The notes beneath the pieces are model-generated. The model was not told the origin of the DNA, searched no databases, and worked only from the letters and a program-made list of their open reading frames with translations. Position numbers and translations under genes: made by a program. This document shows, in pieces, positions 39,816 to 58,878 of a stretch of DNA of 64,000 nucleotides. Position 1 is the stretch's first letter. Each line of letters starts with the position of its first letter. Source of the stretch: Myxococcota bacterium (GTDB taxonomy: Bacteria > Myxococcota_A > UBA796 > CAJQPC01); NCBI GenBank assembly GCA_036012755.1, contig DASCPX010000047.1:32001-96000 (forward strand), read 5' to 3'.

Positions 39816-39834
39816 GTCGGGGTCTGACCCCGAC
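39816..39834. repeat. REP-like palindrome GTCGGGGTC-T-GACCCCGAC (partial second copy GGTCTGACCCC at 39755-39765)
   Basis: Direct reading of the divergent intergenic region. Confidence 0.6.
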
Positions 39835-39848
39835 GGTGGGGGTTTTGG

Positions 39849-39875
39849 TCAAGGCCACACGTCCTGAACCGATTC
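39849..39875 (+). promoter_or_regulatory. Sigma-28-like promoter of the giant surface protein
   Basis: TCAA-N15-ACCGATTC; ATG 39882 follows 6 nt later with no SD. Confidence 0.6.
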
Positions 39876-39881
39876 GTGGGC

Positions 39882-42800
39882 ATGATCTGGATCTCTCTGT
39901 CCTTGGCGCGCGCCGGAACCATCGAGGTCCCAGGGGACTACGGAACGCTGTCGGCGGCCATCGCCGCGGCCAGCGACGGGGACACCATCGAGGTCGACAC
40001 CGACCTCACCGAGACAGTCGATCTGCAAGGAAAGAGCTTGACGATCGTCGGCAACGGCCATGAGATTGCGCCGAGTAGCGGCTCCTATGTCGTGCGCTGG
40101 GACGACGGCGAAGAGGGGAGCCTCGAGGACTTCGAGATCACGCCGCCCAGCGGCGCGCGCGCCTTCGTCCTCGAGAACGCCAGCGTCTCCATCTCTGAAG
40201 TCACGATCAACGCCAGCGGCAAGGACACCCTCGACGGCGGCGCCATCAACATCGACGGCGGGAGCCCGAGCTTCGAGGACCTCACCATCACAGACGCTGT
40301 CGGTCGCAAGGGCGGCGCGATCTACATCGACGGCAGCGCCACCGTGACGCTCACCGATGTCGACATCGAGGACGCAGAGGCCACCTGGGGTGCCGGTCTG
40401 GCGATCACCGACAGCGCGGCCGTCACCGCCACGAGGGTCACGATCTCCGACCCCGAAGCCAGCCGGCAGGGGGTCGGCGTCTTCCTCGACGGCGCCACGC
40501 TGACGGGAACCACCCTGAAGATCACGGATCCCTCCGGCGAAGACACCTTCGGCGCCGGGCTCTACCTGCAGGACCACGCGGTCCTCGACCTCACCGGTGG
40601 CAGCATCACCGGCTGCTCGGTCAGCACGACTGGCTACTCCGGCGGCGGTGTCTACGCCGAGAACGGCTCGGCGATGACGCTCACGAGCCTGAGTATCGAC
40701 AGCTGCGAGGCCAGCTACGGCGGCGCCATCGCGCTCGATGCATCAAGCGCCGAGCTGTCCAACGTCAGCTTCACGGGCAACCTCGCCGAAGAGCGCGGCG
40801 GGGCCATCTACCTCGAGTCTGCGGCAGAGCTCTCCTGCGACGGCTGCAGCTTCGACGCCAACGAAGCGGACCTCGGCGGCGCGGTCGCCGTCGACGAGTC
40901 CTCCACCTTCGTCGATGACGAGGGCAGCTACGAGAACAACGTCGCCGCCAACGAGGGAGGCGCCGTCTGGCTGCGCTCGGCTGCGACCTTCGAGCTCTCC
41001 GAGTTCAGCAGCAACAGCGCCAGCGATGGCGGGGCCATCTACGCCTACGACATCGGCGACGTGCTCGAGATCATCGACGGGACCTTCACGACCAACGACG
41101 CCACCGGTGAAGGGGGAGCGATCTTCGTCGAGGACGACGGGGAGCTCGACGTCGACGGCAGCACCTTCGACGAGAACATCGCCGACAGCGGCGGCGCCAT
41201 CGCCTTCTCACCTGGCGACAACAGCTGGGATCTCACGGTCACCGACAGCACCTTCGAGTCCAACGAGGCCACGGACGACGGCGGGGCCATCCACGTCTCC
41301 AAGGGCGAGCTCATCGCGCTCCGCGGGGTCGACTTCCTCCGCGGCAGCGCGGGCGAGGACGGCGGCGCTCTCTACGTCTACGCCTCGGACGAACTCACCG
41401 TCACGCGCTGCCTCTTCTTCGACAACGAAGCCACCGAGTATGGCGGCGCGGCGGTCGAGAGCGCGACGGTGGAAGCCAGCACCTGGACGAACAACCTCGT
41501 CGTCGAGAACGACGCGGACAACGCGGCGGGCATCCTCTTCGACGACTGCGAGGACACCTCCTACGTCGCCAACAACGACTTCCTGGCCAACGACATCGGC
41601 TCCGCAGGCGCCGGGGTGATCTGGATCGAGGACGGCGGCGTCGAGTTCCTCAACAACATCGTCGCCGACAACAACGGCGGCTACGCGATCTACTGCGCGG
41701 ACACCGACGTCGACGGGCTCTCCGACTTCTTCCACAACGACTTCTCGGACAACGACGGCGGCGGCAGCGACTTCGACGGCTGCACCGACCCGGGGACCGA
41801 CGACGGCAACCTCGAGGACGACCCGGACTGGCGCTCGGCGCCGAGCTGGGATGGGGACGAGTCCGACGACGACTACCACCTCGATCCCGGCAGCACACTG
41901 GTCGACGCGGGCCAGACGGACATCTACGACCCGGACGGCTCGGTCAGCGACATCGGCGCCTTCGGCGGTCCTGACGCAGAGGTCAACGACGCCGACGGCG
42001 ACGGCTACTACGACACGACCGACTGCGACGACGGCGACGCCACCATCCACCCCGACGCCACCGAGACCCCCTACGACGGCATCGACCAGGACTGCGACGG
42101 CGGCGATCTCGTCGACGTGGACGGCGACGGCTACGACGGCGACGTGGACGACTGCGACGACGACAACGCCGTGATCAACCCCGGCGCCGAGGAGACCTGG
42201 TACGACGGCATCGACGCCGACTGCGACGGGCTCTCCGACTACGACGCCGACCTCGATCTCTACGACGACCAGCGCTACGGCGGCCTCGACTGCGACGACG
42301 AGGACGCGGCCGTGAACCCCTCTGGGACAGAGGTCTGGTACGACGGCGTCGACCAGGACTGCGACGGGTGGTCCGACTACGACGCCGACATGGACGGCTT
42401 CGACTCCGCCAGCTACGGCGGCGACGACTGCGACGACACCCGCCCCTTCGTCAACCCTGGCGCCCGCGAGATCCCCTACGACGGCGTGGACGAGGACTGC
42501 GACGGCGAGGAGATCTGGGACGTGGACGGCGACGGCTGGGAGGGCACCCCCGGTGCCGGCGCGGACTGCAACGACAACGACCCCGCCATCCACCCGGGCG
42601 CCGAGGAGATCCCCTACAACAGCTTCGACGAGAACTGCGACGGCCACGTCTCCTACGACAACGACGACGACGGCTTCGACCGCGATCCTCCCGGCAGCGA
42701 CTGCGACGACGACGACGCGAGCGTCTTCCCGGGGGCTGTCGAGGCCTGGTACGACGGCATCGACCAGGACTGCCTCGGCGACGACGACTACGACGCCGAC

Positions 42801-44960
42801 GGCGACGGTCAGCAGCCAGAGGCCTACGGAGGCTTGGACTGCGACGACCTCGACTCCCTCGTCTATGTCGGCGCCTCGGAGAACTACTACGACGGCATCG
42901 ATCAGAACTGCGACGGCGCCGATGACTACGACCGGGATCGAGACGGCCACCGGGCCGAGGACTGGGGCGAAGACTGCGACGACCGCCGTGACGACGCCTA
43001 CCCCGGAGCAGAGGAGCTCTTCAACGGCCTCGACGACGACTGCGACGGCTACCCAGAGGACGCCGACCGCGACGGTGACGGCGCCATCGACTGGGTCGAG
43101 TGGGCCATCGGCAGCGATCCGGAGGACCCGGACACGGACGATGACGGCGACGAGGACGGCAAGGAGCTCTACGAGGCCACAGAGGGCGTCGACAGCGATC
43201 TGGACGGCGTGCTCGACGTCTTCGACGACGACGACGACGGCGACGGCATCCCCTCGCTCACGGAGAACACCGCCGATCCGGATCGGGACGGCGTGGTGGA
43301 CGCGGACGTCGACGGTGACGGGATCCGCAACTCCCGCGACAGGGACAGCGACGGCGACGGCTACCTCGACGAGGACGAGGGCGCAGAGGACAAGGACTTC
43401 GACGGCGTGCCCGAGTACATCGACTACAACGGCGACTACGCTGGCGGCGGCTGCGCGGGCTTCGGGATCACCTGGCTCTCCGTCCTGGCCTTCCCGGTCT
43501 TGCTGTCGCGGCGTCGGCGGCACTTCGCGACGCTGCTGGGGCTCATCGGAATCAGCGGCCTGTTCGCGATGACCAGCACCGCCGAGGCGGCCGATTCCCA
43601 CGGCTACCAGCTCCTCGGCACCACCGGCGATGTCTACGGCTACGCGCGCATCGCCTATCCAGACGGCGGGCAGCGCGGCGACTGGGACGTCTCCGTCGTC
43701 GGCGACCACGCCTGGCGGCCCCTGGTCGAGGTCCTCCCAGAGGGCAGGACTCCGTTGATCTCGAACCTCTCGACCGCCAACATCGCCATGTCCGGCTCCC
43801 TCGGTGCTCGCACCCGCCTCGAGGCGGTCGTGCCAGTCCACGCCTACGGCGTCGGTCCCACGGGCAGCTTCGCCGCGATGGGTGATGCGCGGCTCGGCGC
43901 GGTCGTGCCCGCCTGGTCCCCCGCCGGCATCCGCCCGGGGCTCGCCATCGCTCCCAGCGTGTGGATCCCCACAGGCAGCGAGGACCGCATGGTCGGAAAC
44001 CCGGGCATCTCCGCTGGTGGTGTCGTGACCGTCGCCCAGGAGCTCGGCCGCCTCGGCTGGGTCGCCAACGTCGGCGCGCGCGCTGGCCGCTTCGAGCCCG
44101 AGCGCAACCTGCGGGCCGGCGCTGGACCGCTGGTCGGAGTCGGGGCCCACTACGCGGTCACGGACGCGCTCACGGTCGCAACAGAGGCCACCGTGCAGGG
44201 GTCGACGGGGTTCTCGAGCTGGCCGGTCGAGCTGATGGCCTCTGGTCGCATCCGCCTCAGAGGAGGGAGCTGGGCGACCGTCGGTGTCGGCGCCGGCCTG
44301 AACGATGCGGTGGGCGCCAGCACCGCCCGCGTCGTCATCGGCGGAGGCTTCAACAAGCGCAACGAGCCGCCGCCAGAGGTGATGCTGCAGTACGTCGAGA
44401 CCATCGTGGAGATCGAGGTCGAGCCAGAGTTCGACCCTCTCGGCGACGACGACGGCGACGGCGTGCTCAACGGCGACGACCGCTGCCCGGACGTGCCGAT
44501 CTACGAGGCCCAGGACCCCCGCTTCAGCGACGGCTGCCCGAAGCTGGCCGAGCTCTCCGGGGACCGCATCATCATCACCCAGAGCATCTTCTTCCGAGAG
44601 GCCAGCGCCACGATCCAGCGCAAGTCCTTCGACGTGCTGGACGAGGTCGCCCGCATCCTGATCGAGCACCCCGAGATCGACGCCCTGCTCATCGAGGGCC
44701 ACACCAACGACAACGGCGGCCCCGAGTACAACTACCGGCTCTCAGAGGACCGCGCGGTCAGCGTCATGCGCCACCTCATCGACGAGGGTGTCGATCGCAA
44801 CCGCCTGGTCGCCCAGGGCTACGGCTATGACGTCCCCCTTGTCGAGCACGATCACGCCGACGCGAAGCAGGTCAACCGCCGGGTCGAGTTCACGGTCGTG
44901 AAGCGCAGCGAGGAGCCCGGCGACGCCCGGATCCCGGACGAGGGCGAGCTGGCGGACTAG
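39882..44960 (+). CDS. Giant cell-surface protein: beta-helix (GGAI repeats) + ~8 MopE-type repeats + TSP3-like repeats + internal MYXO-CTERM-like/signal hairpin + beta-barrel + OmpA-C domain
   Basis: Single uninterrupted ORF; GGAI..FxxN repeats; DCDD/YDGIDQDCDG repeats; GGGCAG..LLSRRRRH..TAEA; OmpA motifs IEGHT..YNYRLSEDRA..NRRVEF. Confidence 0.85.
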   Translation: MIWISLSLARAGTIEVPGDYGTLSAAIAAASDGDTIEVDTDLTETVDLQGKSLTIVGNGHEIAPSSGSYVVRWDDGEEGSLEDFEITPPSGARAFVLENASVSISEVTINASGKDTLDGGAINIDGGSPSFEDLTITDAVGRKGGAIYIDGSATVTLTDVDIEDAEATWGAGLAITDSAAVTATRVTISDPEASRQGVGVFLDGATLTGTTLKITDPSGEDTFGAGLYLQDHAVLDLTGGSITGCSVSTTGYSGGGVYAENGSAMTLTSLSIDSCEASYGGAIALDASSAELSNVSFTGNLAEERGGAIYLESAAELSCDGCSFDANEADLGGAVAVDESSTFVDDEGSYENNVAANEGGAVWLRSAATFELSEFSSNSASDGGAIYAYDIGDVLEIIDGTFTTNDATGEGGAIFVEDDGELDVDGSTFDENIADSGGAIAFSPGDNSWDLTVTDSTFESNEATDDGGAIHVSKGELIALRGVDFLRGSAGEDGGALYVYASDELTVTRCLFFDNEATEYGGAAVESATVEASTWTNNLVVENDADNAAGILFDDCEDTSYVANNDFLANDIGSAGAGVIWIEDGGVEFLNNIVADNNGGYAIYCADTDVDGLSDFFHNDFSDNDGGGSDFDGCTDPGTDDGNLEDDPDWRSAPSWDGDESDDDYHLDPGSTLVDAGQTDIYDPDGSVSDIGAFGGPDAEVNDADGDGYYDTTDCDDGDATIHPDATETPYDGIDQDCDGGDLVDVDGDGYDGDVDDCDDDNAVINPGAEETWYDGIDADCDGLSDYDADLDLYDDQRYGGLDCDDEDAAVNPSGTEVWYDGVDQDCDGWSDYDADMDGFDSASYGGDDCDDTRPFVNPGAREIPYDGVDEDCDGEEIWDVDGDGWEGTPGAGADCNDNDPAIHPGAEEIPYNSFDENCDGHVSYDNDDDGFDRDPPGSDCDDDDASVFPGAVEAWYDGIDQDCLGDDDYDADGDGQQPEAYGGLDCDDLDSLVYVGASENYYDGIDQNCDGADDYDRDRDGHRAEDWGEDCDDRRDDAYPGAEELFNGLDDDCDGYPEDADRDGDGAIDWVEWAIGSDPEDPDTDDDGDEDGKELYEATEGVDSDLDGVLDVFDDDDDGDGIPSLTENTADPDRDGVVDADVDGDGIRNSRDRDSDGDGYLDEDEGAEDKDFDGVPEYIDYNGDYAGGGCAGFGITWLSVLAFPVLLSRRRRHFATLLGLIGISGLFAMTSTAEAADSHGYQLLGTTGDVYGYARIAYPDGGQRGDWDVSVVGDHAWRPLVEVLPEGRTPLISNLSTANIAMSGSLGARTRLEAVVPVHAYGVGPTGSFAAMGDARLGAVVPAWSPAGIRPGLAIAPSVWIPTGSEDRMVGNPGISAGGVVTVAQELGRLGWVANVGARAGRFEPERNLRAGAGPLVGVGAHYAVTDALTVATEATVQGSTGFSSWPVELMASGRIRLRGGSWATVGVGAGLNDAVGASTARVVIGGGFNKRNEPPPEVMLQYVETIVEIEVEPEFDPLGDDDGDGVLNGDDRCPDVPIYEAQDPRFSDGCPKLAELSGDRIIITQSIFFREASATIQRKSFDVLDEVARILIEHPEIDALLIEGHTNDNGGPEYNYRLSEDRAVSVMRHLIDEGVDRNRLVAQGYGYDVPLVEHDHADAKQVNRRVEFTVVKRSEEPGDARIPDEGELAD

Positions 44961-47970: not shown

Positions 47971-48032
47971 TCTTCGGATCCTGATCGGAGGGTATTGAGC
48001 AAACCTCAAGAGCTTGTTGCGCCGACCGATGT
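47971..48032. promoter_or_regulatory. Divergent, overlapping sigma-28-like promoters (flhA and HDOD-GGDEF)
   Basis: Plus: TCAA(48006)-N15-ACCGATGT. Minus: TGAG(48008)-N15-TCCGATCA and TCAA(47998)-N16-TCCGAAGA. Confidence 0.55.
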
Positions 48033-58851: not shown

Positions 58852-58878
58852 TAATGGCCCCCTCTTTAGATCCGAGAG
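58852..58878 (+). promoter_or_regulatory. Sigma-28-like promoter of flagellin 1
   Basis: TAAT-N15-TCCGAGAG. Confidence 0.65.

Follow-up and report, generated by a model that had tools for sequence, protein, structure and literature searches.

A putative sigma-28-controlled adhesin–anchor polyprotein in flagellated, uncultured Myxococcota-like bacteria

Introduction

Why does a single reading frame, lying 3 kb before a run of flagellar genes (flhA, fliA, flgF, flgG, flgA, flgH and flgI), encode both a tagged surface protein and an outer-membrane barrel, and does it give rise to one protein or two? The locus lies in the window, the whole 64,000-nt stretch of DNA analysed here, which belongs to a genome (G000) that is 96% complete.

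The known counterparts are TraA and TraB, whose domains are defined in PMC6372800. TraAB has a 1:1 stoichiometry, and a complex of TraA on the barrel has been predicted (PMC12045341). A route to the cell surface through lipidation, myxosortase and type II secretion has been shown for TraA (PMC11980579). The same paper describes MXAN_5598 of Myxococcus xanthus, in which an adhesin, an internal MYXO-CTERM tag, an outer-membrane barrel and an OmpA domain share one frame, compares the arrangement with TraA and TraB combined, and suggests that the product is processed.

Results

Domain architecture

The gene (39882..44960, forward strand) is a single stop-free frame of 1,692 aa. Pfam places Beta_helix, Chlam_PMP, Cu-binding_MopE (eight stretches) and OmpA matches on the protein; together with the translation and the AlphaFold2 models, these confirm the uninterrupted frame and the domain order that the first-pass annotation, made from the sequence alone, had proposed. 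The gene and its promoter comprise:

39849..39873, +, sigma-28 (FliA)-type promoter TCAAG-N15-CCGAT, 8 nt 5′ of the ATG (motif search)
39882..39914, +, putative short N-terminal signal peptide, aa 1–11, ending in A-x-A (translation; a similar short type in homologues)
39915..41981, +, right-handed beta-helix head with Chlam_PMP/GGAI repeats (Pfam, AlphaFold2, fold search)
41982..43061, +, stalk of eight Cys-paired, MopE-type acidic repeats (Pfam)
43062..43442, +, conserved head end with DxDxDG (TSP3-like) repeats, putatively Ca-binding
43443..43520, +, internal MYXO-CTERM-like tag: GGGC, hydrophobic helix, RRRR (orthologue junctions)
43521..43589, +, second internal signal-peptide-like segment, ending in A-E-A (orthologue junctions)
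43590..44363, +, 12-stranded SphA/COG4313/FapF-type outer-membrane barrel (AlphaFold2, Foldseek, PF13557)
44430..44546, +, linker with a single TSP3-like repeat (profile match)
44547..44897, +, OmpA C-terminal peptidoglycan-binding domain (Pfam, profile and fold matches)

An inverted repeat with a terminator-like hairpin (39817–39841) lies immediately 5′ of the promoter.

AlphaFold2, with a 34-row alignment, predicts aa 1237–1492 to be a 12-stranded barrel with pLDDT blocks mostly above 90, followed by the OmpA C-terminal domain, in agreement with the barrel-like region first suspected after 43590. Foldseek matches the barrel region to FapF and a COG4313 channel, and PF13557 recognizes it by a narrow pass (24.9 against a cut-off of 22). 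The SphA/COG4313/FapF barrels (PF13557; PDB 5o67, 4rl8) have the same predicted fold, whereas the window barrel is preceded by an internal signal and followed by TSP3-like and OmpA domains. The head is modelled as a long beta-helix (pLDDT 91), for which a fold search gives weak matches to solved beta-helices, lyases among them. The beta-helix is the most divergent folded part of the protein, with a mean identity of 43–45% to 22 homologues; the last 75 aa of the head end reach a mean column identity of 69% in 33 orthologues.

The fusion is kept, with the same domains, in 22 other homologues (1,681–1,838 aa; 42–86% identity over aa 1170–1500), a count that omits P0002, the window's own protein, and P0025, a distant protein with a different fusion. 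These homologues come from a search with aa 1170–1500 among proteins of 930–2,961 aa, a size range that could not show split forms. Contigs from three of four sequencing runs, which may be the source samples, bridge the junction without any difference from the window; the fourth run misses the junction. Fused homologues, the loci of related genomes and the junction-spanning contigs rule out an assembly error as the origin of the fusion. The observations that the first-pass annotation had listed as fatal to its reading (a stop or indel near 43520, homologues that are always split, the lack of a barrel) were not encountered.

The fusion junction and split orthologues

At the junction, GGGC (aa 1188–1191; 43443–43454) is followed by an 18-aa hydrophobic stretch and RRRR (aa 1210–1213; 43509–43520), and then by a 23-aa hydrophobic stretch that ends in AEA at aa 1236, with the predicted mature barrel start at 43590. 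The window tag has the Cys motif, the hydrophobic helix and the Arg cluster of the MYXO-CTERM layout, and all 33 aligned orthologues share its Cys. Of the 27 fused junctions, 26 were scored, as one with a variant Cys motif escaped the pattern. They retain the Arg cluster and both hydrophobic stretches, the second stretch in 24 and A-x-A in 23. The junction is the least conserved sequence of the protein (30% mean identity), yet the Cys, both helices, the Arg cluster and A-x-A are retained, which is how a conserved tag plus signal peptide would be expected to look.

The profile scans suggested at first pass gave OmpA, TSP3-like and Cu-binding_MopE matches but no TIGR03901 match, as the window's own tag falls below the cut-off of all MYXO-CTERM models (TIGR03901, TIGR03382). 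These models are passed by 5 of 23 fused orthologues scanned, out of 27, and by 4 of 7 split ones. In the split orthologues G027, G048 and G043, the real C-terminal tags likewise miss the models, suggesting that the miss of the window tag reflects lineage drift.

Searching 61 related genomes in all six frames and inspecting the loci yielded 27 fused loci, 10 split loci in nine genomes and two loci cut by contig ends, with orthology cut-offs that were picked after the score gap was seen. Relatives therefore hold both forms, which is the comparison that the first-pass annotation had called for. Where the two parts are separate genes, the head gene stops with the tag, and the barrel gene starts on its own with a short signal peptide, behind which the mature start motif predicted for the window protein recurs. 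In place of the second internal signal of the fused forms, the split orthologues thus have a true N-terminal signal peptide. The stop and start codons overlap in several split loci, as in traAB. Since the split loci break at the fusion junction and their barrel genes carry their own signal peptide, processing into two proteins is likely, and we consider with good confidence, judging from these sequences, that one chain is processed into two products.

Polyprotein processing would be unneeded if translation of the barrel began independently at an in-frame start codon within the gene. A TTG is present three codons 5′ of RRRR in the window, and 15 of 26 fused orthologues have some start codon close to the Arg cluster, but it is ATG in six, comes with a Shine–Dalgarno-like sequence in one, and is missing altogether from the other 11, making this explanation extremely unlikely.

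A single switch between fused and split forms is rejected on the barrel tree with all 36 barrels (AU p 5e-33) and after removal of G056 (p 0.005). It is not rejected with G056 and G058 both removed (AU p 0.36), so the case for several switches depends on two loci. The root of the FastTree barrel tree falls, weakly supported, close to a split clade.

Several loci depart from the simple head–barrel order. In G053, an insert of about 800 nt (L051:4000-4890), by eye an antitoxin plus PIN-type pair, separates head and barrel; at L054 (G034:C444), a tandem pair of head genes precedes a single barrel gene; and at L048:11390-12946, L050:5236-6816, L049 and L053, an extra tag-bearing gene, coupled upstream of the split cassette, carries the promoter.

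Processing and export machinery

G000 encodes three signal peptidases I, GspD above cut-off and one MrtX-like protease, which scores 122 bits against a cut-off of 180 over model positions 8–233 of 238. At least 21 TIGR03901 tags exceed the cut-off in this genome, and a loose pattern finds 111 tag-like C-termini, false ones included. Together with the label of one homologue and those of sequencing runs, these features suggest that the host is a marine, uncultured, Myxococcota-like bacterium.

Could signal peptidase be the sole cutter, with the head keeping the tag helices in the inner membrane or being sorted by another protease? Both the tag and the MrtX-like protein lie under curated cut-offs, and four further Rce1-like proteases are encoded in G000, as such a scheme would allow. 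However, the tag Cys is invariant, the true tags of three split orthologues miss the same models, and a 1,180-aa rod would presumably fit the periplasm poorly; we regard a single cut as very unlikely.

Beta-helices with Chlam_PMP repeats are typical of type V passengers. The barrel, besides being an anchor, might thus be a private export channel of the head, FapF-like or two-partner-like, and its best fold match is indeed FapF, an amyloid secretion channel. In addition, a hydrophobic-x-G-G motif, defined post hoc, lies just before the Cys in 4 of 4 G000 tags followed by such a barrel versus 8 of 107 other tags. Against this, the FapF match is at 13% identity and is shared with a small-molecule channel, and a 12-stranded barrel would hardly let the eight Cys-paired repeats pass if these become oxidised in the periplasm. 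Furthermore, type II secretion, which exports TraA (PMC11980579), is present, as indicated by GspD. A private channel is therefore improbable, and hydrophobic-x-G-G is possibly a barrel-docking signal.

Other tag cassettes occur in G000. A second fused tag-signal-barrel-OmpA family (L105:3576-6725; G000:C61) is found in 42 of the 61 genomes and has no tie to flagella. At L104:1625-4105 (G000:C228), an internal GC-helix-RRRR tag precedes a lipoprotein-like signal (L-S-C) and a domain of RCC1 repeats; this is possibly a polyprotein with a lipoprotein as its second product. Split pairs of a tag protein and a SphA-barrel are present on C16, C129 (two) and C183.

A sigma-28-type promoter

The promoter motif of the gene recurs within the window:

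48006..48030, +, TCAAG-N15-CCGAT before flhA
50153, the same motif before fliA
55449, the same motif before a flgM-like gene
57904, variant motif before flgL
60832, variant motif before fliD

The exact motif, with a spacer of 15 and no mismatch, occurs four times in the window, before the adhesin gene, flhA, fliA and a weak FlgM match. The strict motif has 22 sites in 6.7 Mb, with five within the flagellar 32 kb (C47:70-102 kb), one of them before the adhesin gene. Both flagellin genes of the window are without the motif on their own strand, and a sigma-28-type motif at 58868 on the reverse strand faces flgL, away from the first flagellin gene. A sigma-70 scan upstream of the adhesin gene found nothing on the gene's strand.

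The motif was spotted by eye, relaxed on the first 18 starts and then tested. The relaxed motif lies within 250 nt of 18 of 29 orthologue starts (18 of 31 N-terminal matches before exclusion of one paralogue and one truncated locus), against a background of 114 in 53,620 genome windows, and is carried by 9 of the 11 loci fetched after the motif had been defined. Where a start lacks it, the motif precedes a coupled upstream tag-bearing gene in four cases and a TGAA variant is present in two; with these counted, 24 of 29 orthologue loci retain the promoter. The five starts without it are three second copies of a basal clade, G040 and G050. None of eight control tag or barrel genes in G000 has the motif. 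In G053, the barrel gene, parted from its head by the insertion, has its own sigma-28-type promoter. Retention of the motif across loci and the separate copy at the G053 barrel argue that the gene is regulated together with the flagellar genes and is not simply their neighbour.

E. coli FliA sites have the same promoter geometry, TCAAG/TAAAG-N15-CCGAT (PMC4183435, Table 2). Compared with the E. coli FliA regulon of that paper, membership here is deduced from the motif, which also precedes flhA and fliA. Both a conserved sigma-28-type promoter and a fliA gene, as expected of a FliA regulon, are present, and the gene is, on the strength of the motif, very probably transcribed by sigma-28.

Signal peptides of about 11 aa without a basic n-region, in the window and in orthologues, go together with starts 8–10 nt after the −10 box. 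This combination suggests leaderless mRNAs in the lineage, and the mRNA of the window gene is probably leaderless.

Co-occurrence with flagella

When genomes with flhA or flgI are taken as flagellated (43 of 61), 36 of these 43 have the cassette and none of the other 18 does, a contrast that overstates independence because the genomes are related. A head-end profile, built from the same genomes, detects 35 genomes at E ≤ 1e-22, all within the 43, and includes G045, which is absent from the model; G057 was added by a barrel-only match. Six families include both flagellated and non-flagellated genomes. Of the same 18 genomes without flagella, 14 have one and 11 the other of two paralogous G000 cassettes; these paralogous cassettes thus ignore flagellar status, and the pattern is specific to the adhesin–anchor cassette. 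In 15 of the 36 genomes with the cassette, it sits on the strand of flhA and no more than 30 kb upstream of that gene; in a further two it comes immediately before flhA, with a contig break between them, and in another two it neighbours flgD/flgE or cheB.

With the queries used, the cassette was not found in seven flagellated genomes, which indicates that the flagellum does not need it. This bears on the possibility that the protein is an accessory of the flagellar envelope, in which barrel and OmpA domain would hold outer membrane and wall together at the pole that bears the flagellum (or in a sheath) and the head would be a surface strut. The sigma-28-type promoter, the place before flhA and the strict co-occurrence with flagella would all suit such a part, and OmpA C-terminal domains serve in MotB-type anchors (weak profile matches here). 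Besides the seven genomes, the head, which evolves fastest of the folded parts and is in this respect more receptor-like than machine-like, and the second copies without a promoter argue otherwise; we find an accessory role unlikely.

A literature search lying outside most subscription journals returned no report of a flagellar link for such cassettes. What is new here is the apparent sigma-28 regulon membership of the family, which the first-pass annotation did not contain.

Comparison with TraA/TraB and MXAN_5598

The window gene shares with TraA/TraB a tagged surface protein on a Cys-rich stalk and a barrel-TSP3-OmpA partner, but differs in its head and repeats and in being fused. Pfam and AlphaFold2 give a beta-helix in place of the N-terminal PA14-like domain of TraA. 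Myxo_Cys repeats (TIGR04201) were not found in G000, in a scan in which no positive control matched, and the repeats of the window are of the MopE type. The TraB model NF033763 reaches 130 bits against a cut-off of 700, over profile positions 349–511 only, which cover TSP3/OmpA and not the barrel; it does match paralogous barrels in G000. No TraB above cut-off was found in 121 genomes of the phylum sample. The different head, the lack of Myxo_Cys matches and the TraB score far under cut-off rule out TraA/TraB orthology. The original proposal of a fused TraA/TraB-like analogue that yields two proteins is accordingly narrowed: the split orthologues and the conserved tag-Arg-signal layout favour it as an analogue, and orthology is dropped.

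These data also bear on function. The overall layout, the divergent head on a Cys-rich stalk and the 1:1 working of TraAB (PMC12045341) would fit TraAB-like kin recognition and outer-membrane exchange, but control by a flagellar sigma factor suits swimming rather than contact-dependent gliding, and this, added to the missing domains and TraB matches, makes such a role most unlikely.

The resemblance to MXAN_5598, compared by description only, is closer, comprising an adhesin region, an internal tag, a barrel, an OmpA domain and a single frame (PMC11980579). The window protein differs in its beta-helix head with MopE repeats, in having split orthologues, and in its second signal peptide, which the account of MXAN_5598 in PMC11980579 does not mention. 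MXAN_5598 lies beside ftsA/ftsZ (PMC11980579), whereas the neighbours of the window gene are flagellar and housekeeping genes, with a sigma-28-type promoter. Of 16 long barrel-OmpA frames selected from a phylum-wide search, 13 show, by eye, the same tag-Arg-signal junction, so that the fused design is common in the phylum. With MXAN_5598 in print, these frames and the second fused family of G000, the polyprotein layout is not new. Most subscription journals lying outside the literature search, the fused design was found in PMC11980579 alone, and a search on internal signal peptides in bacterial polyproteins gave nothing relevant.

Discussion

Our preferred reading is that the gene encodes a surface adhesin of the swimmer cell, docked on a wall-anchored barrel and produced 1:1 from one chain, for attachment; by analogy, we consider this reasonably probable. 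As suggested by promoter, neighbourhood and co-occurrence, sigma-28 would transcribe the gene along with late flagellar genes. From the predicted topology, Sec would export the head, the tag helix would halt transfer with RRRR in the cytoplasm, and the next helix would resume export. Signal peptidase I would cut after AEA (aa 1236) and release barrel-TSP3-OmpA, the product that split orthologues make, which would enter the outer membrane and bind peptidoglycan. By analogy with TraA (PMC11980579), the GGGC Cys would be lipidated, a myxosortase-like protease would strip the tag, and type II secretion would bring the beta-helix on its MopE stalk to the surface. The conserved head end would then dock on the barrel, giving a wall-anchored 1:1 adhesin with which a swimming cell could grip a surface, particle or prey. 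The adhesion role itself is suggested by predicted fold and analogy.

Taken as a whole, we put at roughly 45% the probability that flagellated, uncultured Myxococcota-like bacteria carry a TraAB-like receptor–anchor cassette under the flagellar sigma factor, fused or split more than once into a self-processing envelope polyprotein, which would serve the swimmer specifically for landing or for catching prey (or belong, as a polar component, to a flagellar envelope not yet described); the barrel would be the docking socket for the Gly-Gly-Cys end of the head.

The fused and split orthologues provide a natural test of whether a 'C-terminal' sorting tag can work in mid-chain, and of whether the host signal peptidase and myxosortase cut an envelope polyprotein into 1:1 partners, a proposal that so far amounts to one paragraph in print (PMC11980579). 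Furthermore, the sigma-28 link is the first functional handle on any of the numerous orphan cassettes of tag and barrel, and suggests how swimming may be coupled with attachment in an abundant marine lineage of uncultured bacteria.
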